Shown here in pieces: positions 8,475 through 30,136 of a stretch of 32,000 nt of DNA. This stretch comes from an uncultured Actinomycetota bacterium (lineage in GTDB: Bacteria > Actinomycetota > Actinomycetes > Mycobacteriales > Jatrophihabitantaceae): positions 1,542,782 to 1,574,781 of the forward strand of contig CAVVPY010000001.1 in assembly GCA_963750295.1 (NCBI GenBank), given 5' to 3'. Each line of letters opens with the position of its first letter. Position 1 is the first letter of the stretch. Under the pieces are notes generated by a model, which saw only the letters and a program-made list of their open reading frames with translations, was not told the DNA's origin and did no database searches. The translations under genes and the position numbers were made by a program.

Positions 8475-8945
8475 TCAGCCGACTTCGGCGAGTCGCTGTC
8501 GGTTGGTCGCGCGGCGGACGGCGCCGGCTGGTCGGCGGGTACCTGGTTTGTAGACCGAGAGGACCACGGACAGCAGTGCCTTCGCGAGCGCGGTCGTGGC
8601 GATCAGACCGACCGTCCACACCTGCACGGTGCCGAGGATCCGGCAGGCCAGATAGAGCCCGACGACGCTCGCCGTCGTCAGCAGGTTCAGCGCGAACTTC
8701 TTGACCACCCAGCCCGTTCTGAGCAGCTGCCACGGTGAGGCAAGCGCGCACAGGACGCCCGCCACGAACGCCGCGCACACGGCGACCGCCAGCACGCCGA
8801 GCAACCGAACGACCATGGGCGCTTGGTCCACCGGAATCGTCAGGCCGGCGGACGTGATCACTGCGAGCAACGCGACCTCGAGCCCGATGCCGGCGGTCGA
8901 GGTGGCCACATGCACGGCGAGCAGGGCGCGGCGCAGGCCGGTCAC
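8475..8945 (-). CDS. Hypothetical integral membrane protein (about 4 TM helices), last gene of the PKS operon
   Basis: 156-aa ORF with a GTG start at 8945, 4 nt after the upstream stop. It has four long hydrophobic segments (ALLAVHVATSTAGIGLEVALLAVI, VVRLLGVLAVAVCAAFVAGVLCALA, FALNLLTTASVVGLYLACRIL, VWTVGLIATTALAKALLSVVLSV). Confidence 0.6.
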   Translation of the reverse strand: MTGLRRALLAVHVATSTAGIGLEVALLAVITSAGLTIPVDQAPMVVRLLGVLAVAVCAAFVAGVLCALASPWQLLRTGWVVKKFALNLLTTASVVGLYLACRILGTVQVWTVGLIATTALAKALLSVVLSVYKPGTRRPAGAVRRATNRQRLAEVG

Positions 8946-9607: not shown

Positions 9608-10078
9608 TCAGAGAGCCGGAGTCAGCGTGGCTGCGATCACCGCGCCGACCGCTGCGATTGCAGCCCATGTACGGACCTCATGGGCAACGTGCCAGTGCAC
9701 CCGCTTGCGGTCCCACCCCTCGGCGGTGCGCCGCGGGCTCCAGCGCTCGATCTGTCGCCAGATGGGCCGGTTGAAGCCTTCGGAGGTGATGCCGACGACC
9801 ACCATGCTCACCGAGGCGAGCACGAACAACACCGTCGCGAGCGGCGTCGAAGCGATCGCTGCGGCCCAGAGGCCGACCCCCGCCGCGATGACGCCGTTCC
9901 ACACCGCGATGGGGTGGAACATGTGCATGTCGATCAATTGGCACGTCGTGACGTAGCGGTTGTAGGGCAGCGAGTCGAGCATCGGGATGATTGACGTCTT
10001 CATGATCCACAGCGTCCCGAGCTGCACGCCGGCAGCGGCGAGCAGGTAGACGGCGAGCACGGTCTGGGCGGTATTCAT
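9608..10078 (-). CDS. DUF1772 (anthrone-oxygenase-like) integral membrane protein
   Basis: 156-aa protein with ~4 TM helices. Its layout (N-terminal TM, PMLDSLPYNRY loop, HPIAVWNGVIAAGVGLWAA, C-terminal RKRVHWHVAHEVRTWAAIAAVGAVIA) is typical of DUF1772. A GGAGG RBS precedes the ATG at 10078. The family assignment is by pattern recognition only. Confidence 0.55.
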   Translation of the reverse strand: MNTAQTVLAVYLLAAAGVQLGTLWIMKTSIIPMLDSLPYNRYVTTCQLIDMHMFHPIAVWNGVIAAGVGLWAAAIASTPLATVLFVLASVSMVVVGITSEGFNRPIWRQIERWSPRRTAEGWDRKRVHWHVAHEVRTWAAIAAVGAVIAATLTPAL

Positions 10079-10109: not shown

Positions 10110-10448
10110 TCAGGCGGGCGTCAGCGCGACGTCGCCGCCGCGCGTCTCGGCGTGCACCTCGAAGCGCATGGACGTGGCCTCGGCCATGCACTCGCGCATC
10201 GGGCGCACAAGGGTGCGGTGCGACGGGTCGCTCTCCCACGCCTCGAAGTGGGCGAGCGAGGTCCACTCGCTGGTGATGAGCCACTGCTCCGGGTCCTGCG
10301 CCGACCGACAGACCTGATCGACCACATGCCCGTCGACGCCGTTGGCGACGACGTAGCGGATCTGCTGGTAGGCAGCCAGGAACTCGTCAGTACGTGCTGC
10401 CGGGACACGGATCAGGAAGACGATGCGGGCGCTCGCACGGTCGTTCAT
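10110..10448 (-). CDS. Antibiotic biosynthesis monooxygenase (ABM; TcmH/ActVA-Orf6-like anthrone/quinone-forming oxygenase)
   Basis: 112-aa protein (RIVFLIRVPAARTDEFLAAYQQI...WLITSEWTSLAHFEAWESDPSHR), the ABM ferredoxin-fold pattern. Its ATG at 10448 overlaps the CLF stop (ATGA). The 303-aa extension to 11021 was rejected. Confidence 0.8.
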   Translation of the reverse strand: MNDRASARIVFLIRVPAARTDEFLAAYQQIRYVVANGVDGHVVDQVCRSAQDPEQWLITSEWTSLAHFEAWESDPSHRTLVRPMRECMAEATSMRFEVHAETRGGDVALTPA

Positions 10449-11695
10449 CGGTGGGCTCCTGCCGGGTCGGCTTCGCGCGGGGCGGTCAGCACGAGCGCGG
10501 AGTTGAACCCGTCGAACCCGCGGGCCCCGACCAGTGCGGTCGTGACGGGCGCGTCGACGGTGGCCGGGACGAAGGCGAGATCGCAATCCGGCGCCGGGTC
10601 GGCCGGGACGTAGGACCCGAGCATCGCGCCGCGATCGATGCTGAGCACGGCCTCCGCGGCGTCCAGCGCGCTGCCGCCCTGGTACAGCCTGCCGATCAGC
10701 GGCTTGTGCGTGCTCACGGGCACGTCGCGTCCTCTGAAGACCGAGTGCAGCGCAGCGGCCTCTGCCTGGTCGGCGTCGGGGACTCCGGCCGCATCGGGCA
10801 CCACGACGTCGACGTCGTCGGGGGTGACGCCGGCACGTTCGAGCGCCTGCTCCATGGCGCGGGCATAGTGGTTCGGCCAGGGGGCGCCTCGGGTGCCGGT
10901 GTGCGTCCCGTCGTGGGTCGCCGCGGCGCCCGCGAGCTCGGCGTAGATGTGCGCGCCGCGCGCGATCGCGTGGTCGCGGTCCTCGACCACGAAGACCGCG
11001 CCCCCCTCGCCCGGCACCCACCCGGTGGCGTTGCGATCGAAGGGCCGGTAGACGTCGGTGGCGCCGCGACTCGTCGCCAGCCGGCCGTGCGCGAGCTGGC
11101 AGGTCAGGGCGTAGGGCGACAGCGGGGCCTCGACGGCGCCCGCAAGCACGATCGGCGTTCCCCGGCGGACCGTCCGGGCGGCATGGGCCAGGCTGTCGAG
11201 CCCGCCGGCCGCCTCGGACACCACGACGGAACTCGGCCCCTTGGCCTGGTATGCGATCGAGACCTGCCCGACCGTGGCCGCGTAGAACCAGGCGATCGAT
11301 TGGTAGGCGCCGACGGTGCGTGCCGGGTCGGCCCAGAGTCGTTGCAGTTCGACCTGACCGAACTCGTTGCCTGCACTGGAGCTGGCCATGACGACGGCAA
11401 CGTCCGTCGGCGGGTGCTCGGACAGGTCCAGTTCGGCGTCACGCAGCGCCTGCCCGGTTGCCGACAGCCCGAGCCACGTCCAGCGGTCGGTCTGCACCGC
11501 GATCCGGCTTTCCACGTGCGACCGGACGTCCTCGCGGACTTCGCCGGCGACCTGGAGCGGATACTGGTCGGCGTCGAACCGGGTGATCCGGTCGATGCAG
11601 GATCGGCCCGCGGACACGGTGTCCCAGTGCTCGGCCGCGCCCGCACCGCTCGGGGCCAGGATCCCCACGCCGGTGATGACGGCTCCGGCGCTCAT
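10445..11695 (-). CDS. Type II PKS chain-length factor (KS-beta/CLF), with Ala at the conserved Gln position
   Basis: [24 protein letters not shown]...[40 protein letters not shown]...[15 protein letters not shown]...[11 protein letters not shown]. It has no active-site Cys, and its ATG at 11695 overlaps the KS-alpha stop (ATGA). Confidence 0.9.
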
Positions 11696-12966
11696 CGCGA
11701 GCCTCCCAGCGCGGTGAAGATCATCGCGGACTGGAAGCCACCGAAGCCGCTGCCGACGGACAGCGCTGCCCGTACCGACCACTCGCGTGCAGTGACCGGG
11801 ACGTAGTCGAGGTCGCACTCGGGATCGGCCACGGCGAGATTCGCCGTGGGCGGCACCACGCCGTACTCGACGGCGAGAGCGCAGGCGGCCATCTCGATGG
11901 AGCCGATCGCGCCCAGCGAGTGCCCGATCATCGACTTGATCGAACTCATCGGCGTCCGGTAGGCGTGTTCGCCCAGCGAGCGCTTGACCGCCGCCGTCTC
12001 GTGCCGATCGTTCTGCTTGGTTCCTGATCCGTGCGCGCTGATGTAGGAGATCTCGTCGGGATTGAGCCGCGCCTGGTGCAGCGCCTCGTCGATCGCCAGC
12101 GACATCTCCACGCCATCCGGACGAAGCCCCGTCATGTGGTAGGCGTTGCCACGACCGGCGTAACCGGCCACCTCGCAGTAGATGTGCGCGCCGCGTGCCC
12201 TCGCGTGCTCGTACTCCTCGAGAACCAGGACGGCGGCCCCCTCGCCCATCACGAAGCCGGACCGCCTCCGGTCGAACGGCTTCGAGGCGTGCTCGGGGTC
12301 GTCGTTGTCGGGCGTGGTCGCCCGGATCGCGTCGAACGAGGCGGCCGAGATCGGCGAGATCGGCGAATCGGACGCGCCGGCGATCACCACGTCCGCCTCA
12401 CCGTCCTGCACGAGGTGATGGGCGTAGCCGATCGCGTCGATGCCAGACGTGCATCCGTTCGAGACGACCTGAACCGGGCCGTGGGCGCCGAACCTGACCG
12501 CGACGTCGGCGGCCAGACTCGACGGCACGAGCGCCTGGTACAGGAAGCGCCCGGCGTAGTCGGCGTCCACCAGCCAGTCCCGGCCGCGGTCGCTGACGAC
12601 GACGAACTCGTCCTCGAGGCGCGTGGTGCCGCCGACGGCCGTGCCCAGGACGACCCCGGTGGACAGCGCGGTCGCCCCGTCGAACTCGAGCCCACTGTCC
12701 TCGACCGCTTCGAGCGCACCGGCCAGCGCGAACTGGATGTAGCGGTCCGAGCGGGCGACCTCGCGCGGTGACAAGCCGGCCTCGGCCGGGTCGAAGTCGC
12801 ACTCGGCACCGACCTGCGAGCGGAACGGCGCCGGGTCGAACAGCGAGATCCGCCTGGTTGCGGTACGTCCCTCGGTGATCGTCGACCAGAAGGCCTTGCG
12901 ATTCACCCCGCCCGGCGCGACGACGCCGACGCCGGTGACGACCGTGCGCCGGTTGTCGACCGTCAC
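11692..12966 (-). CDS. Type II PKS ketosynthase alpha (KS-alpha)
   Basis: [14 protein letters not shown]. The active site is [15 protein letters not shown], and the catalytic His motifs are [16 protein letters not shown] and [14 protein letters not shown]. The GTG start at 12966 overlaps the cupin stop (GTGA). Confidence 0.95.
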
Positions 12967-13385
12967 GGCGTCACCGCCTGGGCCATGAGCGCCGCGGCCT
13001 CCTCCTTGGTCTCGGTGTCGACGTGACCCAGGTCGGGGCGGGGTGCGAGCGGGCCGCAGTGGAACACGGCGCGCGCAGTCGTTGCGTGCGGGTTGCGCAG
13101 CCGGTGCCGGACGAATTTCGGCACCATCACGGCCTCGTCGACCTCGAGTCGGCGCGACTCGCCGTCGAGGTCGATATCGAGGGTGCCCTCGATGACGCAG
13201 AGGAACTCCTCCGAGTACGGGTGGTAGTGCTCGGCCACCGCCTCGCCGGGCTCGACGATGACGATGCCCATGAACCCGGACGTGCTGGCGACAGTTGCCG
13301 GGCCGAGCAGGACGCGGACGTCTCCGCCGCGGCGCGTGTTGTGCGGCGCGGACGAGAGCCCGACGGTCGGGACGGTGGTCGACAT
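12963..13385 (-). CDS. Cupin-fold polyketide accessory protein (TcmJ / WhiE-ORFII-like)
   Basis: 140-aa protein with a cupin core ([40 protein letters not shown]...[13 protein letters not shown]). It lies immediately 5' of KS-alpha, as in the tcm and whiE clusters. A GAGAGG RBS precedes the start. Confidence 0.8.
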
Positions 13386-13400
13386 GATGGTGTGCCTCTC

Positions 13401-14118
<718 letters not shown>

Positions 14119-14122
<4 letters not shown>

Positions 14123-15483
14123 GCTGCTTCCTCCTTTGGGTTGCACATCCGGTCGACGAGACCGGTGCTGTGGGTTGCCGTGCTGAACTGTGGATGCGCG
14201 AGAACGTCACGCAGGAACGGGATCGTGGTGCGGACGCCCGGACCGTCGACGGCGAACTCGGCCAGCGCGCGGTCCATCCGGTCGATGGCCTGGACCCGGT
14301 CCGGGGCCCAGGTCACCACCTTCGCGATGAGCGAGTCGTAATGGGGACCGAGGACGTAGCCGGGGTAGGCATGCGTGTCCACGCGGATGAAGGGACCGCC
14401 CGGTACGTCGAAGCGCTCGAGCCGGCCGGGCGTGGGCAGGAAACCGCGCGCGGGATCCTCGCCGTTGACGCGGCATTCGACGGCGTGCCCGGCGAAGGTG
14501 ACATCGGCCTGGCGGTAGGGCAACGGCCGTCCGGCAGCGGCGAGGATCTGCTCCCGGACGAGGTCGAAGCCGGTGATCATCTCGGTGACCGTGTGCTCGA
14601 CCTGGATGCGGGTGTTGATCTCCATGAAGTAGTAGCGGCCCTGGCCGTCGAGCAGGAACTCGAACGTCCCGACGCCGGTGTAACCGACGGCGAGGGCCGC
14701 CCGCAGCGCAGCCTCGTTGATTTCGCGCGAGGTCTCGGGCGACAGGTCCGGAGCGGGCGCCTCCTCGACGAGCTTCTGGTGGCGTCGCTGGACCGAGCAG
14801 TCGCGCGTACCCAGCCAGACGCCGTTCCCGTGCTCGTCGCACAGAACCTGCACCTCGATGTGCCGCGCGTCGGCCAGGTAGCGCTCGGCGTACACGCGCT
14901 CGTCGCCGAACACCGAGGCCGCCGTACTGCGGGCCCGAGTGAATGCCTCGGTCAGGTTCTCGCGACGCTCGACGACCGCCATCCCCTTGCCGCCGCCGCC
15001 GGCCACCGCCTTGATGATGACGGGGAACCCGATCTCGTCGACGACCTCGTGCAATTGCGCCGCACCGGTCAGCGGCTCGACCACGCCGGGCAGAAGGGGA
15101 AGCCCCTCGGCCGACATGATCTGCCGCGCGGCGGACTTGTCGCCGAGGCGTCCGATCAGGCCAGGCTCGGGGCCGATGAACGTCAGCCCGTACTCGGCGC
15201 ACATCTCAGCGAAGTCAGGATCCTCGGAGAGGAACCCATAGCCCGGATGGACGCCGTCTGCGCCGGTCTGCAACGCGGCCTCGACGACCGCGGCGTGATT
15301 CTGGTAGCTGCGACGGCTGGGGGCCGGCCCGATGTGCACGACGTGGTCGAAGTGCCGCGCCTGCCTCGGGTCGAGGTCGGGCGTGGACGCGACCCCGACG
15401 GTCTCGATGCCCATCTCGGCGCACGTCCGGGCCACCCGCAGCGCGATCTCGCCGCGGTTGGCGATGAGGATCCGCTCGAACAC
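14119..15483 (-). CDS. accC: Biotin carboxylase subunit of acetyl-CoA carboxylase (stand-alone AccC type)
   Basis: (M)FERILIANRGEIALRVARTC...GYGFLSE...PVIIKAVAGGGGKGMAVV...YFMEINTRIQVEHTVTE. It is 454 aa with no fused BCCP. The GTG start lies 3 nt after the BCCP stop. Confidence 0.9.
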
Positions 15484-15486
15484 GGC

Positions 15487-16056
15487 TCAGCCCTCCTCGA
15501 CCGAATCGGGACGGATGCGCACCAGCGGCTGGTCGAACTCGACCGGGGCACCATCGCCGACGAGGACGTCGAGGACCTCACCGGAGATCTCGGCCTCGAT
15601 GTTGTTCAGCAGTTTCATCGCCTCGACGATCCCGATGGTCTGGCCGGCCGCGACGCACTGGCCGACCTCGACGAACGGCGGCTCACCGGGGCTCGGGGCG
15701 CGGTAGAACGTCCCGACCATCGGGGACCTGACGGCGACACCATCGACCGACACGTCCTCGGGGACGACCGTCGGCTGAGCAGCGACAACGTGCGGGGACA
15801 CGGCTTCCACCGGGACCGCGGGCGCCACCGATGGGACCGGCACGGCGACAGCCGCCGTGGTGCCGAAACCGCCGACGGGAGCAGGCGCAGGATGTTCCCA
15901 CTCGACCTCGACGACGACGTCGCCCGACGACAGCCGCACACGACGCAGCGGTCCGTCCACGTCCTGGGCGAGAGCACGCAACTCCTCGCCCAGGCGCAGC
16001 AGCGCGTCCTGCTCGCCGGCGTTGCTCGCTCGGTTCTCCGCCGTCGCGGTCATCAC
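15487..16056 (-). CDS. accB: Biotin carboxyl carrier protein (AccB type)
   Basis: The C-terminal biotinyl domain is [51 protein letters not shown] (biotin-Lys in EAMKL). An Ala/Pro/Val-rich linker precedes it. The start is GTG 16056 (GTGA overlap) or ATG 16053. Confidence 0.9.
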
Positions 16057-17795
16057 GCCACCGCTTCCTCGGGATCGGTCGAGAGTGCAGCCGCGCCGTC
16101 GTGGACCACGGTCACGGCGATGTCACCGGTATCCCGGAACCGGGCGCGGCGCACGCGCACCAGCGTGGCGCTGTCCTGCGCGCACAGGACGTCGATGGCT
16201 CGCGACACCGCGGCGTGCAGACTCGACACCATCGCAGTCGGATCGAGCGCGCTCCCCCGACCGTCGACGTCCGGCTCGGGCAGCACCCCGTCGATGACGC
16301 CCAGCTCGAGCAGTTCGCGGGCGCTGATGTGCAACGCCCGAGCGGCCTCCGGCGCCTTCGCCGCGTCGGACCACAGGATGGCCGAACAACCCTCCGGACT
16401 GATCACCGAGTAGACGGAGTGCTCGAACATGAACACGCGGTCGGCGACAGCGAGCGCCAGCGCACCACCGCTCCCGCCCTCGCCGGTCACGACGGTGACA
16501 ACCGGAACCCGCAGCTCGAACATCGCGGCGATGCTGTCGGCGATGGCGAAGGACTGTCCGCGTTCCTCGGCGACCCGCCCGGGGTACGCGCCCGGGGTGT
16601 CGACCAGGGTGACGATCGGCAGGCCCAACTGGTCGGCCAGGCGCATCAGCCGCAGCGCCTTGCGGTACCCGTCGGCGTCGGGCATCCCGAACTGGCGCGC
16701 GACGAGCTCGCGCGTCGAATGACCCTTCTGATGGCCGATGACCATGACCGCGCGGCCGTCCAGTTGGGCAAAGCCGCCGACAATGGCGGGGCAGTCGGAG
16801 TTGCTGCGGTCACCATGGAGTTCGACGAAGCCGGTGAAGACGTGCGAGAGGTAGTCCAGAGTGGTCGGCCGGTCGGTGTTTCTCGCCTGGGCGACTACGG
16901 CCCACGGGTCGACGACGCGGACGTGCTCAGGGGCGGTGATCACACCGTCGCCCGTGTCGACACGTCTCGGACCGCGAGCCGGGCGCGCGGTCACCGTCTG
17001 CAGCAGCCGGGCGAGCCACGGGCGCAGTTCGTGCCGGTGCACAACCTGATCGACGTGGCCGTGCTCGAGCAGGAACGGGGCGGTCTGGAAGTCCTCGGGC
17101 AGGTGCTCGCGGATCGTCTGGGCAATCACGCGACGCCCCGCGAAGCCCATCCGTGCGTCCTTCTCGGCGACGACGACGTCGCAACTGGTGGCGAAGGATG
17201 CAGCGACCCCGCCGAAGGTCGGATCGGCGACCACGCTGACGGTGAGCAGCCCGGCCTCGCGCAGCGCGACGAGCGCTTGGCTGACCTTCGCCATCTGCAG
17301 CAGCGCAATCGTGCCCTCCTGCATGCGCGCCCCGCCTGACGACGTGACCAGCACCAGTTGGCGATGCTCGTCGACGCACAACTCGGCGACCCGGGTGATC
17401 GCCTCGCCGACGGCCGCGCCGAGACTGCCGCCCATGAAGTCGAACTCCATCACCGCGATGCCGATCGCCACGCCCCCGAGGTCGGCGCGGCCGGCCAGCA
17501 CCGCGTCGTCGAGGCCGGTGCTGCGACGCGCGGATTCGAGCCGGTCCCGGTACGGCTTCGAATCGACGAAGCCCAGCACGTCGGTGGCGCGCACTCGCTC
17601 GGCCAGGGGTTCGAAAGTCCCGGAGTCAACCAGCGTCTCGACGCGGCGCGCCGCGCTGAGGCGGCAGTGCCGGTCGCACTCGGGGCAGACCGCGAGGTTG
17701 CGGCGCCACCGCTTGCCGTAGTGCAGCGCGCCGCAGCCAGCGCAGCGGATCCACGCCTCGGTCGAGGATTCGGGTCGAGCTTGCAGCGCGGTCAT
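16053..17795 (-). CDS. Acetyl-CoA carboxylase carboxyltransferase, fused beta-alpha (AccD-AccA) polypeptide
   Basis: The N-terminal AccD half has a Zn ribbon ([27 protein letters not shown]) and [11 protein letters not shown]. The C-terminal AccA half has [27 protein letters not shown] and [13 protein letters not shown]. It is 580 aa from the ATG at 17795, which overlaps the TcmI-like stop (ATGA). The 733-aa extension to 18254 was rejected. Confidence 0.9.
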
Positions 17796-18124
17796 ACCAG
17801 CTGCCCTCCGGGGGTCCAGTCGTAGAAGCAGCGAGCCTGGGCGTCCGCCGGGGACTGCCAGTTCTCCAGGTAGGGGCTGATGTGCGGGCGCAGCGCCTCG
17901 CTCACCCGTGCGAACTCGGCGTGGGTGCGGACGGACTCGACGGCCTGGGCGCCGGGACGTTCGGTCTCGAGCAGGTGCACGTACAGGTCGGACAGGCGGT
18001 AGAGCGAGCGACGTCGCACCCCGGCGATGTTTGGCAGTTCGGTCGAGTCGGAATCGCCGAAGATGCGGGCGACCTCGGCCTCCGAGTCCGGCTTGATGCG
18101 GGCGATGATCAGCGATCGGTTCAT
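17792..18124 (-). CDS. TcmI-family polyketide cyclase (WhiE-ORFVII-like), first gene of the PKS operon
   Basis: MNRSLIIARIKPDSEAEVARIFGDSDSTELPNIAGVRRRSLYRLSDLYVHLLE...CFYDWTP is collinear with TcmI (recalled: ...AEHDTTELPLEIGVRRRVLFRFHDLYMHLIE...VFYSWT). ATG at 18124. Confidence 0.9.
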   Translation of the reverse strand: MNRSLIIARIKPDSEAEVARIFGDSDSTELPNIAGVRRRSLYRLSDLYVHLLETERPGAQAVESVRTHAEFARVSEALRPHISPYLENWQSPADAQARCFYDWTPGGQLV

Positions 18125-18248
18125 CTGGGCCTCTCGTGACTCTGCGGTGGCGCCGGGGGCGGCTGCGCTCCGAATCGGGTGCTGAACCAATCTGCGAGGG
18201 GAGGTGTCCCGACGTCGTGATGTACCGATCACCGCAGCGCTGGGAAGT

Positions 18249-18274
18249 GGTCACGTGCCCTGGTCAGGTCACGT
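18249..18274 (-). promoter_or_regulatory. Candidate operator: three GGTCA half-sites / duplicated GGTCACGT upstream of the PKS operon
   Basis: The plus strand reads GGTCACGTgccctGGTCAGGTCACGT (18249-18274), 125-150 nt upstream of the TcmI-like start codon. It also contains the CACGTG palindrome at 18252-18257. Confidence 0.3.
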
Positions 18275-20339: not shown

Positions 20340-20438
20340 TCACCGGGCTTGTCGCCGCCGAAAACCCGTCGTTAAGTTCCCAACGACAACAGCACAAACC
20401 GGATGAATCGGCCCGAATGGGCCGGACGGAGGACGGCG

Positions 20439-21440
20439 ATGACCCAGACTGCGACCATCCCGGCGCCCGCGGATGACTGCTCGGCAGCCGACTACTCGCG
20501 CTGTTACGCGGTCATGACGACCATCCGCGCCTTCGAGAACGCGGTGCACGAGGCGTTCGCGACTGGCAGCGTCCCCGGTGCGGTTCATCTGTACGCGGGC
20601 CAGGAGGCTGTCGCGGCGGGCGTCTGCGACGCGCTGTCACCGGCTGACTACGTGTCCAGCACGCACCGCGGCCACGGGCACGCGATCGCCAAAGGCTGCG
20701 ACCTCGACGCGATGATGGCCGAGATCTTCGGGCGCGATGCCGGCCTGTGCCGCGGCAAGGGCGGTTCGATGCACATCGCGGACATGAGCAAGGGCATGCT
20801 CGGCGCCAACGGCGTGGCAGCCGCCGGAGCCCCGATCGCCTGCGGCGGCGCGCTGTCGGCCAAGCAGCGCGGAAGCGGCCAGGTCGCGGTCACCTTCGTC
20901 GGCGACGGCGGGGTCAACCAGGGCGCCTTCGCGGAGAGTCTCGTGCTCGCCGGCCTCTGGCAGCTCCCCGTCGTGTTCGTCGTCGAGGACAACGGCTACG
21001 CGCAGTCGACGGCGTCGGCCCACCACCTCGCGGGACGTGGCGTGTGCGCCCGAGCCGAGGCCCTCGGCATACCGGCCGAGGTCGTCGACGGCTACGACGT
21101 CGTCGCGGTCCGGGACGCTGCCGGGCGCGCGGTCGCACGTGCTCGGTCCGGCGGCGGGCCCACGCTGCTGGAATGCCGCGCCTTCCGCTTCTTCGGACAC
21201 ATGGAGGGCTGGGACGGCCAGGAGTACCGCGGCGACGGCGAGGTCGATCGGCTGCGCAACGAGCACGATCCACTACAGCTGTTCCGCGCGCGTGCCGAAC
21301 GGGAGGGCCTCGCGGACCACGGCGAACTGGATCGCGCCGACCGTCGCGCGGCCGCCGCGGTCGCGGCCGCGGTGCAGTTCGCCCGCACCGCGCCCGATCC
21401 AGACCCGTCCGAACTCGTCACCGGCGTCTACGCCGACTGA
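20439..21440 (+). CDS. TPP-dependent 2-oxoacid/acetoin dehydrogenase E1 component, alpha subunit
   Basis: FENAVHEAF..G.VPGAVHLYAGQEAVAAGV...STHRGHGHAIAKG...GKGGSMHI, with the TPP motif GDGGVNQGAFAESLVLAGLWQLPVVFVVEDNGYA. The ATG at 20439 is preceded by GGAGGA (20428-20433); ATG 20403 is the alternative. Confidence 0.85.
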   Translation: MTQTATIPAPADDCSAADYSRCYAVMTTIRAFENAVHEAFATGSVPGAVHLYAGQEAVAAGVCDALSPADYVSSTHRGHGHAIAKGCDLDAMMAEIFGRDAGLCRGKGGSMHIADMSKGMLGANGVAAAGAPIACGGALSAKQRGSGQVAVTFVGDGGVNQGAFAESLVLAGLWQLPVVFVVEDNGYAQSTASAHHLAGRGVCARAEALGIPAEVVDGYDVVAVRDAAGRAVARARSGGGPTLLECRAFRFFGHMEGWDGQEYRGDGEVDRLRNEHDPLQLFRARAEREGLADHGELDRADRRAAAAVAAAVQFARTAPDPDPSELVTGVYAD

Positions 21441-21488: not shown

Positions 21489-22571
21489 GTGACCGACGTG
21501 GCCGACTTGACTCCGGCAACCGAGCCGCTCGCGGCAGCCGCGGTGCCCACCGCACGCGAGGCACCACGGCTGATCAGTTATCTCGATGCCATCACCGAGG
21601 CGATGGCCGGCGAACTGGCCCGCGATCCGTCGGTCGTCCTGCTCGGCGAGGACAGCATCGGCGGGACCGGCTGCGACGGCCGGCTCGGCAATGCATGGGG
21701 TCCGACGAAAGGGCTTTTCGAGCAGTTTCCCGGCCGGGTGCTGGACACGCCCATCACCGAGTCCGCATTCCTGGGCGCGGCGGTCGGCGCGGCGGCGACG
21801 GGCCTTCGCCCTGTCGTCGACCTGCTGTTCGTCGACTTCGTCGGCGTCTGTTTCGACCAGCTGCTCAATCAGGCGTCGAAGTTCCGGTACATGAGCGGTG
21901 GCGTCGCGCAGGTCCCGCTCGTGGTCCGAGCGATGTGGGGCGCCGGCATGCGCCGCGGCGCGCAGCACGCCCAGGCCCTGTACCCGCTCTTCGCGCAGAT
22001 CCCTGGCCTGAAGGTGGCCGTGCCCTCGACCGCCGCGGATGCCAAGGGCCTCATGGCCACGGCGATCCGCGACGACGACCCGGTCGTGTTCCTCGAGCAC
22101 AAGATGCTCTATTTCGTCCCGGGGCCGGTCCCGGCCGGCGAGCACCTCGTCCCGTTCGGACGCGCCGACGTCAAGCGCACCGGCCGTGACTGCACGGTCG
22201 TCGCACTCGGCAAGTCCGTCCATGACGCTCTGGCCGCAGCCGAGCCGCTCGCCGCCGAGGGCATCGAGATCGAGGTCGTCGACCCGCGCACCGTCGTCCC
22301 GCTCGACACCGACGCGATCCGCACCAGCGTCGAGCGCACCGGTCGGCTCGTGGTGGTCGACGAGTCTTACCGGCGTTGCGGATTCGGGGCCGACGTCGCC
22401 GCAGTCGCCGCCGAGGAAGCCTTCCACGCGCTGACCGCGCCGGTGCGCCTCGTGACGCCGCCGCACACGCCGACCCCGTTCAGCCCGATTCTCGAGGACG
22501 CGTTCCTGCCGTCTGCAGCGGACATCGCCGCAGCAGTGCGCACGACGGTCGGCGCCGGCGTCGCGGCCTGA
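21489..22571 (+). CDS. TPP-dependent 2-oxoacid/acetoin dehydrogenase E1 component, beta subunit
   Basis: ISYLDAITEAMAGELARDPSVVLLGED...RVLDTPITESAFLGAAVGAAATGLRPVV...AQHAQALYPLFAQIPGLKVAVPSTAADAKGLM...VEIEVVDPRTVVPLD. GTG start at 21489. Confidence 0.85.
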   Translation: MTDVADLTPATEPLAAAAVPTAREAPRLISYLDAITEAMAGELARDPSVVLLGEDSIGGTGCDGRLGNAWGPTKGLFEQFPGRVLDTPITESAFLGAAVGAAATGLRPVVDLLFVDFVGVCFDQLLNQASKFRYMSGGVAQVPLVVRAMWGAGMRRGAQHAQALYPLFAQIPGLKVAVPSTAADAKGLMATAIRDDDPVVFLEHKMLYFVPGPVPAGEHLVPFGRADVKRTGRDCTVVALGKSVHDALAAAEPLAAEGIEIEVVDPRTVVPLDTDAIRTSVERTGRLVVVDESYRRCGFGADVAAVAAEEAFHALTAPVRLVTPPHTPTPFSPILEDAFLPSAADIAAAVRTTVGAGVAA

Positions 22572-23084: not shown

Positions 23085-24524
23085 ATGAGCCACATCATCG
23101 TAGTCGGCGGAAGCGTCGCCGGGCTCTCCGCGGCGGCCATGCTGGCCGACCAGGGTCACCGCGTCACGGTCCTGGAACGCGCGGCCGACCCGGGGGCGCA
23201 ATCACTCGCCGACGCGGCCGCCCGGCATCGCCCGACCGCGCCGCAGTACTCGCACTCGCACGCTTTCGCGTCGCTGTCCGGTAAGGAACTGCGCAACCGC
23301 TTGCCGGACGTCGCGCACACCCTGGCCGCGGTCGGGTGCGGTGAGGTCTTCCTCGCTGACTACCTGCCGCCGACGCTCGAGGCCTACGAGCCGCAGCCGG
23401 CCGACCGTGAGCTGCGCATGACACTGGCCCGCCGCTCGACCTTCGAACTGGTGCTCCGCGAACGCGCACTGGCGCGTTCCGGCGTCGAACATGTCAGCAA
23501 CGTGCGCGTCGTCTCGCTGCTCACCGACGCCGAGCATCCGGTGCGGGTCGTCGGCGTGACCGCCGCCGACGGCCGGAGTTGGTCGGGCGACCTGGTCGTG
23601 GACGCGACCGGCCGCCGGACCAACGGAGCCGACTGGCTGGCCCGGGCCGGCCTGCCGGCGCCGCAGACCGAGTCGAGCAGTAGCCGGATCGTCTACTACA
23701 CGCGCCACTACCAGCAGCTCAGCCCGCGTCCCGGTGGCCCGCTCAACCGCGGCTTCGGTGCCGGCGGCCTGTGGAACCACTACACCGCCGTGTTGTTCCG
23801 CGGTGACAACGGGAGCTTCTCGATCAGCATCGGTGTGCTGCCCACCGACGAGGCGATGCGAGCGCTCCGGGATCCCAAGGCGTTCACCGCCGCCGTCACC
23901 GCCACCCCCCTGCTCGCCGGCTGGCTCGACCCAGAGGTCTCCGCACCTACCTCGGACGTCGAGGTGATGGGCGGGCTCGACAACGCGATCATGCTTCCGC
24001 CCTCCGAGGCTCCGGTCGGCTTCCTCGCTGTCGGTGACTCCGTGTGCACGACCAACCCCGCTTACGGCCGCGGCGTCTCCCTCGCGTTGTCCGAGGCCGG
24101 TCTGCTCGCCGACGTGCTCGAAGAGTTCGGCGCCATCGATGGATTGTCGACCGCCGCCTACTGGCAGCGGGTCGAGCAACTGGTTCGACCGTGGTACGCC
24201 GAGGCCGTCACCAACGACCTGGGTCGCGCCATGCTGTGGGAAGCCACGCTGGCCGGCCGGCCCCTTGGCCGTCCGCCGCAGGGTGTGATCACCTTCGGCG
24301 CCGCGGTTGCCGCGTCCACCCGCGACCCCGAGATCTGGCGTCGCGTTGCCCGCACCATGATGATGCTCGCGCCGCCGTCCACGCTCTATGCGGACCCGGA
24401 GATCGCGGCGCGGATCGGCCGCGCCCTGGCCGGCGGACCGCCGCCGGAGCTTCCGGGCGCCACGCGCGACGAGCTGCTCGCCGCGATCGGAGACGACACC
24501 GTTCGGCTGGCCAGGTCGGCCTGA
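23085..24524 (+). CDS. FAD-dependent oxidoreductase / monooxygenase-like protein
   Basis: The N-terminal dinucleotide-binding motif is IIVVGGSVAGLSAAAMLADQGHRVTVLER. Later motifs are VVDATGRR and AVGDSVCTTNPAYGRGVS (GD motif). It is 479 aa, with a GAGAGGA RBS. Confidence 0.75.
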   Translation: MSHIIVVGGSVAGLSAAAMLADQGHRVTVLERAADPGAQSLADAAARHRPTAPQYSHSHAFASLSGKELRNRLPDVAHTLAAVGCGEVFLADYLPPTLEAYEPQPADRELRMTLARRSTFELVLRERALARSGVEHVSNVRVVSLLTDAEHPVRVVGVTAADGRSWSGDLVVDATGRRTNGADWLARAGLPAPQTESSSSRIVYYTRHYQQLSPRPGGPLNRGFGAGGLWNHYTAVLFRGDNGSFSISIGVLPTDEAMRALRDPKAFTAAVTATPLLAGWLDPEVSAPTSDVEVMGGLDNAIMLPPSEAPVGFLAVGDSVCTTNPAYGRGVSLALSEAGLLADVLEEFGAIDGLSTAAYWQRVEQLVRPWYAEAVTNDLGRAMLWEATLAGRPLGRPPQGVITFGAAVAASTRDPEIWRRVARTMMMLAPPSTLYADPEIAARIGRALAGGPPPELPGATRDELLAAIGDDTVRLARSA

Positions 24525-25500: not shown

Positions 25501-26238
25501 TCAGCGCACGTGCCGAACGTCGCCGGCGCTGACCTCGCGGGGGCCGTCCCCGGTCTCGATCACCAACATCCCGGATCCAGAAATCGCCGACGCCTTCCCG
25601 TGCAACTCACCGTCGGCCGACTCGACGACAATCACGCGGCCGATCGTGGCGCACCGTGACCGGTAGGTCTCGAGCAACCCCGAACCTGCGGCGTCCCCGC
25701 CGGCATCGATCAGGGCGTCGTACTGGCGTGCCAGCGCCGCCAGCACATCGGAAAGTAACCCGTCGGCATCCGTATCGCCGGCTCCGGCGATTGCCAGCGA
25801 TGTCGAATCGCGCACCGGCAGTTGCTGCGCCGTCTGGGTGACGTTGACGCCGACGCCGACGACCACCGCGTCGCCGCGCGCCTCGGTAAGGACGCCCGCG
25901 ATCTTGGCGTCGCCGACGAGCACGTCGTTGGGCCATTTCACGGCGACCATTGCCACGCGCGCGTCGAGCGCCTCGGTCACGGCCAGGCCCGCCAGCGGCG
26001 TGAGCCAGGCCCACGCCGAGGTGGGAAGCGGCGGCCGCAACCGGATGGAGAACAGCAGCGACGAACGGGCGGGAGCCTCCCAGCTGCGGTCGAAGCGTCC
26101 GCGCCCGGCCGTCTGGTGAGCGGCGACGAGGACCTCGCCGGCAGAGCCGCCGACGTCGGCGAGCAGATCGGAGTTGGTCGAGGCGGTCTCGTCGACCCGC
26201 CGCAGCGGGCCGAGGCTGGGTGGCAGGACCACGGTCAT
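25501..26238 (-). CDS. birA: Biotin--[acetyl-CoA-carboxylase] ligase (group I BirA, no N-terminal HTH)
   Basis: DETASTNSDLL...VLVAAHQTAGRGRFDRSWEAP (GRGRxxRxW)...AVKWPNDVLVGDAKIAGVLTE (KWPND)...VVGVGVNV. 245 aa. Confidence 0.85.
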   Translation of the reverse strand: MTVVLPPSLGPLRRVDETASTNSDLLADVGGSAGEVLVAAHQTAGRGRFDRSWEAPARSSLLFSIRLRPPLPTSAWAWLTPLAGLAVTEALDARVAMVAVKWPNDVLVGDAKIAGVLTEARGDAVVVGVGVNVTQTAQQLPVRDSTSLAIAGAGDTDADGLLSDVLAALARQYDALIDAGGDAAGSGLLETYRSRCATIGRVIVVESADGELHGKASAISGSGMLVIETGDGPREVSAGDVRHVR

Positions 26239-26248
26239 GGTTCTCAGG

Positions 26249-26929
26249 CTAACGAGCGCGGACGCGTGGCGGCACCCATCGGGCGGCGTGGGCGACGGAC
26301 AGGACGAGCCCGTCGCAGACCTGCCAGCGGCCCGGGACGCCGTCGCGTAGCCGTCGCGGCGGCGTCGTGCCGGCGGCGAAGTCGACGAGGAACGTCTCGC
26401 CAGGGCCGAGGTCCACTCGCATGTCGGCGATCCCCAGCACCCGGCCGGTCACCGGATGCCACACCTTGAACGCTGCTTCGCGACAGCCCCACAACACGGT
26501 CGCTGCCAGGCCCGGGTCGACGCCCCCACGGACGAGGGCCGCTCGAGCGTTCCCGCGCTCGTCGGCGTCCAGGCGCGCGTCGACCGCCGCGGGCAAGGCG
26601 ATCGCCGGCGTCGCGTCAATCCCGATCGTGCCGACCTCCGCGCGCCGGCCGACAGCTGCGGCCACGAACCCCTCGCAGTGGGTGATGCTGCCCGTCGTGC
26701 CTGGCGGCCACTGCGGGCTGCGGTCTGCGGCGCGGCCGACCGTCCGCTGCGCGACACCGAGCCGTGCGAGGGCCTGCGCGGCGCACGCACGTCCTGCCTC
26801 GAACTCTGCGCGGCGCTTCGACGTCGCCCGCTCCAGTCCGTTCGGACCAGCGTCGGCGACCGGGAGGTCGAGGTGGGCGCGACGCTCGACGGCGACCACA
26901 CCGGGTGGCAACAGGCCGTCGAGCAGCAC
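26249..26929 (-). CDS. 4'-phosphopantetheinyl transferase (Sfp/EntD type)
   Basis: KRRAEFEAGRACAAQALARLG, PQWPPGTTGSITHCEGFVAAAV, IGIDATP and VLWGCREAAFKV correspond to the EntD/Sfp-type motifs. The GTG start at 26929 is uncertain. Confidence 0.8.
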   Translation of the reverse strand: MLLDGLLPPGVVAVERRAHLDLPVADAGPNGLERATSKRRAEFEAGRACAAQALARLGVAQRTVGRAADRSPQWPPGTTGSITHCEGFVAAAVGRRAEVGTIGIDATPAIALPAAVDARLDADERGNARAALVRGGVDPGLAATVLWGCREAAFKVWHPVTGRVLGIADMRVDLGPGETFLVDFAAGTTPPRRLRDGVPGRWQVCDGLVLSVAHAARWVPPRVRAR

Positions 26930-27906: not shown

Positions 27907-28293
27907 TCAGCCGCCGACCGGCTCCAACGGCGCGTCGTGCCGGCGTGACAGCACGCACTCGAGCGCGGCATCGCGGAAGAACGCGCGGGCGCCTTCGGGG
28001 CTGCGCATGTCCCGCGGCTGCGACAGGTGCTCCTCGAGCTCGTCCTCGAAGGCGCGCACCTCGGCCTGGCGGCCCATGTGCGACGCGACGAGCGGGAGCG
28101 GCCCGTCGACCTCGATGACCCGAACCGCCATCTGCTTGCCGACGAAGGCCATCGTGCCGAGCAGCCTGCCGACGACGTTGCCGTCGGCATCCGCGACATC
28201 GAACGACGGACGGCCGCTACGCCGGAAGAGGTCCTTGACGGCCTCCTCGCTACCGGGCTTGAGCGGGTAGAAAAGTGCGTGCCACGTGGACAT
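27907..28293 (-). CDS. Small SchA/CurD-like domain protein (spore-pigment-cluster-associated family); assignment tentative
   Basis: The ATG at 28293 has a GGAGG RBS. The 128-aa sequence is MSTWHALFYPLKPGSEEAVKDLF...AVRVIEVDGPLPLVASHMGRQAEVRAFEDELEEHLSQPRDMRSPEGARAFFRDAAL. This matches my recollection of the SchA/CurD (PF04486) pattern. The extension to 28713 was rejected. Confidence 0.5.
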   Translation of the reverse strand: MSTWHALFYPLKPGSEEAVKDLFRRSGRPSFDVADADGNVVGRLLGTMAFVGKQMAVRVIEVDGPLPLVASHMGRQAEVRAFEDELEEHLSQPRDMRSPEGARAFFRDAALECVLSRRHDAPLEPVGG

Positions 28294-28334
28294 CGTTAAA
28301 CCTCCGTTGTCGGGACTGACGCCGTGTTCAGACG

Positions 28335-29138
28335 TCATTGACTGGCGGTGACCCCGCCGTCGATGTAGACGATCTGGCCGTTGACGAACGCGCCTGCGGG
28401 CGAAAGCAGGTAGCGCACGGCGCCGGCGATGTCGTCGGGTTCGGCGAAGCGGCGCAGCGGGATGCGCTGCTTCATCCGCGCGACGAGAGTCTCGTCGGCG
28501 TTCGCGCCGGGCACGAATCCGGTGGGGACGAAGCCCGGCGCGACGGCGTTGACCGTGATGCCGTACGGACCCCACTCGGTCGCGAGCTGGCGCACGAGCA
28601 GGTCGAGGCCGGCCTTGGCCGCGCCGTAGGCACTGAACCCGCCGGGTGCGCCGACCGAGCCGCGCACGGACGACAGATGCACGATGCGGCCGGTTGTGCC
28701 GGCGTCGATCCACCGGCGCGCGACGGCCTGCGAGAGGAGGAACGGGCCGACGAGATTGGCCTCGACGACGTCGCGGAACGCCTCCTCGGGGAATTGCTCG
28801 GCCGGGTGGATCCGCAGCGTGCTAGCGCAGTTGACGACGAGATCTACCGGCCCCAGCGCGCTCTCGACGGCCTCCAGGGACGTCTCGACGCTGACGCGAT
28901 CGCACACGTCCTGCCCGACACCGACGGCCCGCGCGCCGCCGCCGGCATTCTCGAGTTCGGCGGCCAGGGCGCGAGCCCGGTCGCCGTCCCGCCCGGCCAC
29001 GGCGACAGCGGCACCGTGCGCGGCGAGGTCTGCGCTGACGGCGGACCCGATGCCGCCGTAGCCGCCGACGACCAGCGCGACCGCGTCGCGTAGCAGGGCG
29101 GGGTCCGCCGCTACCGCGCGCTCCGTGCTCGCGGTCAC
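28335..29138 (-). CDS. Short-chain dehydrogenase/reductase (SDR; candidate polyketide ketoreductase)
   Basis: The cofactor motif is ALVVGGYGGIGSAV, the catalytic motif is SAYGAAKAGL (YxxxK), and the C-terminus is NGQIVYIDGG. The GTG start at 29138 overlaps the amidohydrolase stop (GTGA). The extension to 29615 was rejected. Confidence 0.8.
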   Translation of the reverse strand: MTASTERAVAADPALLRDAVALVVGGYGGIGSAVSADLAAHGAAVAVAGRDGDRARALAAELENAGGGARAVGVGQDVCDRVSVETSLEAVESALGPVDLVVNCASTLRIHPAEQFPEEAFRDVVEANLVGPFLLSQAVARRWIDAGTTGRIVHLSSVRGSVGAPGGFSAYGAAKAGLDLLVRQLATEWGPYGITVNAVAPGFVPTGFVPGANADETLVARMKQRIPLRRFAEPDDIAGAVRYLLSPAGAFVNGQIVYIDGGVTASQ

Positions 29139-30136
29139 CGGGCCACCGCGGGCTCGAGCGCGAACAGGCGCGCGGCGTTCGCGCCCATGATCGCCGTGCG
29201 GTCGTCGCCGTCGAGGTCGAGGGCGTCGATCATGCCGATCGCGTCGGCCAGGTCCGTGGCCAGCGGTGGACTGTCGGTGCCGAAGAGGACGTGCTCGGCG
29301 CCGAACAGCCGCACCGCTGCCGCGAGCGCGATCGCGCTCGGGGTCGCCGTGTCGACGTGGATCCTTCGGACCGTCTCGGCCATCGGGGACCGGTGCGCGC
29401 CGACCGGCTTCGCGCCCGGAGGTCCACCCGTGCCGGGCGGCGGTCCACCTGCCCCCGGAGGCGGTCCGCCGGCGGAGCGGCGATCGGCGAGTGCCAGCTT
29501 CTCCGCCAGCAGCGGCAGGGCCCCGCCGACGTTCGGCGCGATGAGGGTGAGCTCCGGGAACCGATCGAACCAGCCGCCGGCCAGCACCGCGGCGACACCG
29601 GCGGTGGTGTCGCACGGCCGGAGCACGTGCTCCACGAGGCCGGCCTCACCGGCCAGCGCGGACGCGCCGACCGGTTCGGCGGGCGGGTGCAGCAGGACGG
29701 GCACCCGCCGCTCGGCCGCGAGCGCGAAGAACGATTCCGCGGCTGGATCGTTCAGGTAGCGCCCGCGGACGCTGGTGTTCGCGATCAGCCCGACGAACTC
29801 GGGCTCGTCCAGCCACCCCGCGGCGAGGTCGAGGGTTGTGTCGGTCGCGAACGGGTTTACGTAGACGTAGGCGCGCAGGTGCGCCGGGCGCATTCGCACC
29901 TGGTCGGCCACCCAGGAGTGGAAGCGTTGCAACCCGTCGACCGGCTGGTCGTAGTTGTCGAGACCGGGGACGGGAACCATCGTCCCGGCGCCGACCGGGC
30001 TGCCGACGACGGTGAGATCGATGCCGTGCGCGAGCTTGGCCTCGATCATGCCGTCGATGTCGGCGAGGCTGCGCGGCATCGGGAACCGATCGAAGAGTTC
30101 CGGTGAGGTGATATGGCCGTGGACGTCGACGTTCAT
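29135..30136 (-). CDS. Amidohydrolase-2 family protein (ACMSD/decarboxylase-like TIM barrel) with an internal Gly/Pro repeat insert
   Basis: MNVDVHGHI (HxH metal site)...PVLLHPP...LFGTDSPPL (conserved C-terminal Asp). 333 aa. Confidence 0.75.
   Translation of the reverse strand: MNVDVHGHITSPELFDRFPMPRSLADIDGMIEAKLAHGIDLTVVGSPVGAGTMVPVPGLDNYDQPVDGLQRFHSWVADQVRMRPAHLRAYVYVNPFATDTTLDLAAGWLDEPEFVGLIANTSVRGRYLNDPAAESFFALAAERRVPVLLHPPAEPVGASALAGEAGLVEHVLRPCDTTAGVAAVLAGGWFDRFPELTLIAPNVGGALPLLAEKLALADRRSAGGPPPGAGGPPPGTGGPPGAKPVGAHRSPMAETVRRIHVDTATPSAIALAAAVRLFGAEHVLFGTDSPPLATDLADAIGMIDALDLDGDDRTAIMGANAARLFALEPAVAR
29411..29470 (-). repeat. In-frame tandem repeat encoding GGPPPGA-GGPPPGT-GGPPGA inside the amidohydrolase gene
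   Basis: The minus strand reads GGC GGA CCG CCT CCG GGG GCA / GGT GGA CCG CCG CCC GGC ACG / GGT GGA CCT CCG GGC GCG. These are three imperfect 18-21-nt units. Confidence 0.85.

Follow-up and report, generated by a model that had tools for sequence, protein, structure and literature searches.

The stretch of DNA analysed here, 32,000 nucleotides from an uncultured Actinomycetota bacterium of the family Jatrophihabitantaceae and referred to throughout as the window, carries on its minus strand a polyketide synthase (PKS) operon in which a ketosynthase (KS) subunit, KSα, is directly followed by a chain-length factor (CLF, also called KSβ). Our subject is residue 162 of this CLF, an alanine at the position where the actinorhodin (act) CLF has Gln161, which appears to be the regular state of a large clade. 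Read along the minus strand, the operon encodes an AccD-AccA fusion, a biotin carboxyl carrier protein (BCCP), a biotin carboxylase, an acyl carrier protein (ACP), a TcmN-type aromatase/cyclase, a TcmJ-type cupin, KSα, the CLF, an ABM-family monooxygenase, a 156-aa protein, an NmrA-like NAD-binding protein and a second 156-aa protein (Table 1), and this order is kept around the closest CLF homologue, which shares 72% identity. Like the CLF, KSα contains both ketosynthase domains according to Pfam; its alignment with the actinorhodin KS (E 4e-165) is free of gaps and places C172, H312, K344 and H349 at the positions of act C169, H309, K341 and H346. The start codon of the CLF (ATG, 11695-11693) overlaps the stop codon of KSα (ATGA, 11692-11695), and the ATG of the ACP, which has the upstream ribosome-binding site AAAGGAGG, overlaps the biotin carboxylase stop codon in the same manner (ATGA, 14119-14122). 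The two overlaps point to coupled translation of the precursor-supply genes and the minimal PKS as one unit. The ACP is the only one in the window; a candidate immediately after the CLF (10121-10408) was rejected, as the gene at this place is the ABM monooxygenase, read in another frame.

The identity of the CLF and of its residue 162 is well defined. Pfam assigns to it both the N- and the C-terminal ketosynthase domain (PF00109, 7e-32; PF02801, 5e-21), and its best match in a phmmer search of all PDB sequences is 1TQY_B, the actinorhodin CLF (E 4.8e-91). Residues 107-209 align gap-free with 1TQY_B, such that SEAAGG of the window CLF pairs with AEQAGG of the act CLF, the act stretch paired with the window motif being RGPSSALVAEQAGGLDALGHA. 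In the phmmer alignments with four FabF structures, the same column holds the active-site cysteine, and with gap-free alignments to 1TQY_B and to all four FabF structures a misalignment of residue 162 is ruled out. At the DNA level, the forward strand reads cgc at 11210-11212, so that the minus-strand codon is GCG (Ala), with GAG (Glu) before it and GCC GGC GGG (Ala-Gly-Gly) after it; counted from the overlapping ATG, the alanine is residue 162. The original prediction, made from the sequence alone, was therefore correct in the motif, the residue number, the codon and the actinorhodin motif that it cited. The surrounding E-x-AGGLD context, which it had described as intact, is indeed kept as in the act CLF, and the alignment that it proposed as a check places Ala162 opposite Gln161. 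No other glutamine of the protein fits the column, the nearest ones (Q144, Q150 and Q200) being located in gapless conserved context.

In all other respects the protein resembles a CLF. It has the fold and length of the act CLF (ActI-ORF2, 1TQY chain B) and the same Asp/Lys/Arg set, D301, K331 and R336, in place of the KS His/Lys/His residues, with K331 retained and D301 and R336 replacing the two FabF histidines. The remaining invariant CLF residues are all retained, and the protein has the defining traits of a KSβ, namely the KS fold, the missing active-site cysteine, the replaced histidine pair and a gene located right after an intact KSα. Besides Gln161, the act CLF differs in having Ser198 and Phe261 where the clade of the window CLF has Cys and His, and in its bulky gate residues F109, T112 and F116, which correspond to N110, G113 and L117 in the window. 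We also considered that Ala162 might reflect an assembly error, or that the CLF gene is decaying. The open reading frame (ORF) is, however, unbroken, translationally coupled to KSα and rich in G and C at third codon positions (GC3 0.87). A sequencing error is unlikely, because a separate Logan assembly from run ERR11523665 encodes the identical CLF protein and because SEAAGG is also found, within a syntenic operon, in the closest two homologues (72% and 66% identity). With the other invariant residues in place as well, we rule out an error or a pseudogene and leave this explanation hardly any probability.

To judge how unusual the alanine is, we compared the column across homologues, using the 120 proteins closest to the window CLF among 5.8 billion, a second set of 120 proteins from a search seeded with a Frankia CLF, and 80 loci (L-numbered) from a set of one genome per species. 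The first set contains 87 Ser, 25 Ala, 5 Gly and 3 Thr at this position and the Frankia-seeded set 73 Gly, 39 Ala, 4 Ser, 3 Thr and 1 Asp; when both were aligned together, the column held 91 Ser, 78 Gly, 64 Ala, 6 Thr and 1 Asp, and glutamine was absent from both sets (0/240). Among the genome loci, 79 of 80 have Ser, Ala, Gly or Thr, the sole Gln belonging to an Acidimicrobiaceae genome. The hosts of these loci include Micromonospora, Salinispora, Plantactinospora, Kitasatospora, Streptomyces, Saccharomonospora, Nocardia, Frankia, Trebonia, Solirubrobacterales and Thermoleophilaceae, and the nearest match to the window CLF in this species-representative set has 63% identity. Across representatives at 50% identity, the residue differs from group to group, with Gln in the actinorhodin-like one and Glu, Arg, Thr, Ala, Ser or Gly in others. 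In a neighbour-joining distance tree (no bootstrap), the small-residue CLFs form one coherent clade that stands apart from the Gln group and is sister to a Glu-type pair. Inside this clade, the window CLF and its 72% homologue constitute a branch of their own, and the window CLF groups with Frankia KSβ and not with the act-, tcm- or spore-pigment-type CLFs.

The codons used at this position tell a similar story. In the 80 loci the column is encoded by AGC (13), TCG (13), GCG (12), GGC (11), TCC (9), ACC (6) and others. Because serine occurs in both of its codon families, AGC and TCN, and because GCG is a single step away from TCG, ACG and GGG, the pattern implies a long drift among small residues, in which the serine codon families would be connected through Thr, Ala and Gly. 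Judged from these alignments, position 162 is constrained by side-chain size and not by a catalytic group; Ala, Ser, Gly and Thr replace one another among close relatives, and Ala162 is one of the states of the clade, not a one-off exchange of Q for A. The description of the protein as a natural Q-to-A CLF in the original prediction thus holds for the residue, but the framing as a substitution in a single protein is misleading, since only 0/240 homologues and 1/80 loci have the glutamine. Similarly, that GCG lies two substitutions from CAG is right as arithmetic and beside the point as a comparison, the codons of the relatives being TCG, AGC, TCC, ACC, ACG, GGC, GGG and GCG.

The small residue does not stand alone. 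When 11 Gln-type representatives were compared with 67 small-type sequences, three columns separated the two groups completely: position 162 (Gln vs small residue), position 199 (Ala, Ser or Ile vs Cys) and position 261 (Phe vs His). Among the 240 near homologues, Cys199 is present in 237 and His261 in 236, while Trp72 and Glu189 are found in all 240; the window CLF itself has the clade signature residues W72, N110, R119, C199 and H261. His261 is specific to the core clade. Cys199 also occurs in Arg-type and Glu-type CLFs and is therefore probably ancestral rather than an innovation. Taken together, the pattern at 162, 199 and 261 looks like a repacked pseudo-active site.

The clade has characterised members in Frankia, where the frankiamicin cluster (fkm) was described as part of a "large diverged clade" of KSα/β proteins (Ogasawara et al. 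2015; PMC4383371). One of our homologues, P0421 (ABW11826.1, FranEAN1_2394), comes from the CP000820 locus of Frankia sp. EAN1pec, which matches Table 2 of that paper gene for gene: histidine kinase, Roadblock, DUF742, GTPase, a 332-aa gene, TcmI-type cyclase, ACP, aromatase/cyclase (AroCyc), cupin, KSα, KSβ, ketoreductase (KR) and two ABM genes. The 332-aa gene has no Pfam match and occupies the place of the LuxR regulator fkmR5. Because of this matching order, P0421 is FkmB; its motif is SDGAGG, which puts Gly at the act-161 position. In orthologues, the column holds Gly (F. alni ACN14a and F. casuarinae) or Thr (EUN1f), and a locus of Frankia sp. Cas4 (L070) with the published fkm synteny has a CLF that reads SDAAGG. 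FkmABC are proposed to make a C24 chain from 12 malonyl-CoA, primed with acetate, a starter that the authors inferred from the lack of both a KSIII and an adenylation gene in the cluster (PMC4383371). The words Gln or glutamine do not occur in that paper.

Like FkmB, the window CLF belongs to this deep clade and lacks the glutamine at act-161, and the two proteins share W72, Asn at act-109, Arg at act-118, Ala at act-195, C199 and H261. The signature residues given for KSβ of the clade are, in act numbering, N109, D110, R118, V129, T192 and A195 (PMC4383371); the window CLF has Asn at 109, a conservative Glu at 110, Arg at 118, Ser at 192 and Ala at 195, position 192 being Ser or Thr in the clade. 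Both clusters also arrange their core genes as ACP-AroCyc-cupin-KSα-KSβ, with an ABM gene next, and a KSIII or adenylation gene is found in neither. Sequence identity amounts to 69% between KSα and FkmA, 57% between the AroCyc and the FkmC1 region and 51% between the cupin and the FkmC2 region. In contrast to FkmB, the window CLF has Ala for Gly and SE- instead of SD- ahead of the site. Of the 14-gene fkm set, the window shares only the ACP, AroCyc, cupin, KSα, KSβ and one ABM gene. The TcmI-type cyclase, the adjacent KR, the two ABM genes and the Roadblock/DUF742/GTPase regulatory set distinguish fkm from the window. Conversely, acetyl-CoA carboxylase (ACC), the biotin protein ligase BirA, a phosphopantetheinyl transferase (PPTase), a pyruvate dehydrogenase (PDH)-like E1, SnoaL, FAD, LLM and SchA/CurD genes and the two 156-aa proteins distinguish the window from fkm. 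Given that the CLFs themselves are only about 46-50% identical, the window represents a sister cluster type, or sublineage, and not an orthologue of fkm.

In view of these relationships, we consider it likely that the CLF of the window is a normal one for the frankiamicin-type lineage, where site 162 needs only a small residue and initiation occurs by malonyl-ACP decarboxylation at the intact KSα. KSα and CLF would form the usual heterodimer, and the ACP would be activated by the PPTase of the cluster. Malonyl-CoA should be provided by the cluster's own ACC, biotinylated by its BirA and possibly fed by the PDH-like E1. The starter would then arise from malonyl-ACP decarboxylated at KSα, with CLF residue 162 contributing nothing but its small size, and the CLF, having the small or altered gate residues N110, G113 and L117, would set a long chain. 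Dreier and Khosla, writing in Biochemistry in 2000, are said to have found that the act CLF glutamine is not required for PKS activity and to have assigned decarboxylative priming to the KS. By having Ala162, the window CLF lacks the glutamine on which the "chain initiation factor" model depends. Decarboxylative priming has been described as a property of "the KS-CLF", and the minimal PKSs of doxorubicin and oxytetracycline, when expressed alone, yield acetate-primed products (PMC340942).

The remaining genes of the window fit a cluster that provides its own building blocks. Upstream of the ACP lies the E. coli-type ACC set. Genes for ACC accompany the CLF in many loci (biotin carboxylase in 46/80, carboxyltransferase in 40/80) and are absent from fkm. 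To the right of the operon, a LuxR-type response regulator, a histidine kinase, the E1 alpha/beta pair, a SnoaL-like protein, an FAD enzyme, biotin protein ligase and PPTase are encoded, followed by an F420/LLM oxidoreductase, a SchA/CurD-domain protein, a short-chain dehydrogenase/reductase (SDR) ketoreductase, an amidohydrolase, a cupin and a quinone-oxidoreductase-like dehydrogenase. The left cluster border is inside the window, where unrelated BNR, PQQ-like and LPG-synthase genes begin. By its gene content, the cluster has its own acetyl-CoA/malonyl-CoA, biotinylation and phosphopantetheinylation supply, with no recognisable starter-unit cassette in the window.

Several further observations concern individual genes. 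The FAD-dependent enzyme, which has a weak tryptophan-halogenase-like stretch and is conserved together with the SnoaL-like gene in window-like loci, may act as a halogenase or as a hydroxylase. The combination of ACC, a two-component system and an FAD enzyme might point to a fasamycin/formicamycin-like cluster, a resemblance for which a literature search gave no usable support. When the longest ORFs are taken, the genes for the SchA/CurD protein and the SDR ketoreductase overlap by about 380 bases; because the domain matches are confined to the C-terminal parts, the true starts lie well inside these ORFs. The two 156-aa proteins have no match in Pfam, NCBIfam or PDB sequences. Around the 72% homologue, genes for proteins of 156 and 161 aa occupy the corresponding two positions, and 15 related loci contain the first protein at about 60% identity. 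As no TcmI-type cyclase is detectable in the window, one of the two may be a divergent cyclase. Finally, the locus with the most window-like gene order (L003; CAWFTJ010000008.1, an 860-kb contig) belongs to a metagenome-assembled genome labelled 'Candidatus Melainabacteria'. Besides the PKS core, this locus has ACC, E1 alpha/beta, SnoaL and the response regulator with its kinase in common with the window, and its CLF likewise has Ala. The label looks inconsistent with an actinomycete-type high-GC cluster, and a binning or naming problem is possible.

Table 1. Location of the PKS genes, the CLF residues and the accompanying genes in the window, with candidate starter enzymes of two comparison loci
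Feature	Position	Strand	Remarks
Chain-length factor (CLF, KSβ), 416 aa	10445..11695	minus	Pfam, phmmer vs PDB
Codon GCG, Ala162 of CLF	11210..11212	minus	column of act CLF Gln161 and KS active-site Cys
CLF residue 72	about 11480-11482	minus	
CLF residue 189	about 11129-11131	minus	
CLF residue 199	about 11099-11101	minus	
CLF residue 261	about 10913-10915	minus	
KSα, 424 aa	11692..12966	minus	C172, H312, K344, H349 intact
TcmJ-type cupin cyclase	12963..13385	minus	
TcmN-type aromatase/cyclase	13401..13862	minus	
Acyl carrier protein (ACP), 86 aa	13862..14122	minus	LGLDSL motif
ABM-family monooxygenase	10110..10448	minus	directly after CLF
First 156-aa protein	9608-10078	minus	in PKS operon
Second 156-aa protein	8475-8945	minus	in PKS operon
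Acetyl-CoA carboxylase set	14119..18254	minus	E. coli-type
Biotin carboxylase	14119-15483	minus	
BCCP	15487-16056	minus	
Fused AccD-AccA carboxyltransferase, 733 aa	16053-18254	minus	
Pyruvate-dehydrogenase-like E1 alpha	20403-21440	+	
Pyruvate-dehydrogenase-like E1 beta	21489-22571	+	
FAD-dependent enzyme	23085-24524	+	
Biotin protein ligase (BirA)	25501-26238	minus	
Sfp-type PPTase	26249-26929	minus	
SchA/CurD-domain protein	27907-28713	minus	longest ORF
SDR ketoreductase	28335..29135	minus	start codon not fixed; longest ORF 28335-29615
Stand-alone AMP-binding enzymes, locus L059	11955-13361 and 16044-17705		
Stand-alone AMP-binding enzyme, locus L074	11225-12736		

The E1 pair and the co-varying CLF residues bear on a different explanation, according to which a dedicated primer replaces a decarboxylase activity lost from the CLF, either with E1 alpha/beta delivering an acetyl or another 2-oxoacid-derived acyl group or with a new CLF site built from Cys199 and His261. 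E1 alpha and beta are conserved beside the PKS in window-like loci (6 and 5 of 80, respectively), and Cys199 and His261 co-vary perfectly with the absence of the glutamine. However, no E2 gene or acyltransferase partner was found near the E1 genes. Their best NCBIfam matches are ordinary PDH E1 subunits, below the curated cut-offs, and together with ACC, BirA and PPTase the pair reads as precursor supply. Moreover, E1 is missing from most of the clade, fkm included. As to the alternative CLF site, the presence of Cys199 in the Arg- and Glu-type proteins and the missing KS histidine pair both speak against it. We thus regard a dedicated primer as very improbable.

A non-acetate starter, which would make decarboxylative priming and with it the glutamine unneeded, could be delivered by an enzyme encoded outside the window or by one that is unrecognised inside it. 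The original prediction had raised such a starter, and the window lends it no support: no KSIII, acyltransferase, AMP-binding enzyme or second ACP is found in the 32 kb. In tblastn searches with E. coli FabH and FabD, FabH-like (KSIII) genes were found neither in the window nor within 10 kb in any of the 80 loci (no positive control), and FabD-like genes were missing from the window and present in 9/80 loci only, all deep-branching. In the window-like loci (L001-L004, L007, L013, L020 and L022), the region within 10 kb of the CLF is likewise free of FabH-like, FabD-like and AMP-binding genes and of a second ACP.

Nevertheless, several points weigh against acetate priming at KSα as we propose it, and some of them favour the non-acetate starter. 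Bisang et al. reportedly showed in 1999 that the act Q161A mutant loses decarboxylase activity, with the glutamine being essential for decarboxylation. The low identity between the window CLF and FkmB makes the comparison with fkm a distant one, and the acetate starter of frankiamicin is itself a proposal from structure and gene content, labelling being unmentioned in PMC4383371. The cluster continues to the right past the edge of the window, and the two conserved 156-aa proteins of the operon have no recognisable family. A stand-alone AMP-binding enzyme, a gene type that serves as a hallmark of non-acetate priming (PMC4383371), is encoded within about 10 kb of the CLF in 37/80 loci, mostly zero to two genes downstream. 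The Micromonospora and Salinispora loci have the CLF followed by ABM, an AMP-binding enzyme and PPTase, and another AMP-binding gene lies about 4 kb further along; in Thermoleophilia and Solirubrobacterales, an AMP-binding gene comes immediately after the CLF, and a FabD-like gene is present in most of these loci as well. In these sublineages the enzymes may indicate non-acetate starters, and given their presence in 37 of the 80 loci, non-acetate priming may be common, even ancestral, in the clade.

For the window itself, however, we consider a non-acetate starter unlikely. The AMP-binding gene is absent from the window, from the window-like loci and from the Frankia fkm loci, and fkm has neither the glutamine nor a starter cassette. 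Furthermore, characterised non-acetate systems prime with acetate by default (PMC340942), and since these Gln-bearing PKSs keep acetate priming as their default, the choice of starter does not predict loss of the glutamine. Conversely, the absence of the glutamine alone does not predict the starter, because it spans sublineages with and without candidate starter enzymes. The correlation between non-Gln residues and starter-unit cassettes that had been suggested for examination is accordingly partial, visible for the AMP-binding enzymes (37/80) but not for FabH-like genes (0/80), nor in the window or fkm.

Acetate priming at an intact KSα next to a CLF with a small residue at 162 can also be viewed against other KS-fold proteins. 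The CLF AntE of the Photorhabdus anthraquinone PKS has Asp at the position in a malonyl-only system (PMC6638757, S2 Fig legend). Like the window protein, AntE (PDB 6SMO/6SMP), the residue of which is known to us from the published description, is a natural CLF without the glutamine; unlike it, AntE belongs to a distant non-actinomycete lineage, serves octaketide synthesis and has an acidic instead of a small neutral residue. In the KSQ loading domains of modular PKSs the site is occupied by Gln, and malonyl-ACP decarboxylation by these domains has been demonstrated (PMC11350588). They share with the window CLF the KS fold, the replaced active-site cysteine and the association with chain initiation. 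KSQ domains keep the KS histidine pair, however, whereas the window CLF has neither this pair nor the glutamine.

Glutamine in place of the cysteine has been called, in textbook style, a "highly conserved" feature of CLFs (PMC10054333), one that neither the window CLF nor its clade displays. Because of its clade-wide absence, and because many other CLF lineages have Glu, Arg, Thr, Ala, Ser or Gly, glutamine at the cysteine position is not a valid defining feature of CLFs. Non-Gln CLFs (AntE) and the diverged clade itself are already known from published work. In the open-access literature that we searched, whose coverage is incomplete, we found no statement of the clade-wide absence of the glutamine and claim no priority for it; on non-Gln CLFs, we found only the remark on the Asp of AntE and general statements of Gln conservation.

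A more far-reaching and rather improbable possibility is that the glutamine of classical Streptomyces CLFs is derived and not the ground state. The frankiamicin/Micromonospora/window lineage would then never have relied on it, and would have fixed the combination of a small residue 162, Cys199 and His261 together with lineage-specific starter or precursor modules, the modules being AMP-binding enzymes in Micromonospora, Salinispora and Thermoleophilia and, for the window type, ACC together with the PDH-like E1. If true, priming chemistry in this lineage would be distinct from the act paradigm, and in the strongest form window-type clusters would be primed via the E1 system or the Cys199/His261 site of the CLF.

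Whether the CLF glutamine is the catalyst of chain initiation or a bystander has been disputed since 1999-2000. Because alanine is a normal state in a large and old family that includes the maker of frankiamicin, acetate-primed by proposal, Ala162 argues that the glutamine is dispensable and not that the enzyme is unusual. Of the alternatives named by the original prediction, dispensability of the glutamine in this lineage is hence the one favoured by the evidence, namely the clade-wide absence, the Gly of FkmB and the proposed acetate-primed fkm product. The window CLF should be seen as normal for its family, and Ala162 should not be taken as evidence for an exotic starter. A clade that has only Ser, Gly, Ala or Thr at the site, and of which one member, fkm, has a proposed acetate-primed product, constitutes a natural test set for the dispute. 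If such pairs decarboxylate malonyl-ACP normally, priming would belong to KSα, the glutamine would be a lineage marker, and annotation rules that rely on it would have to be relaxed.

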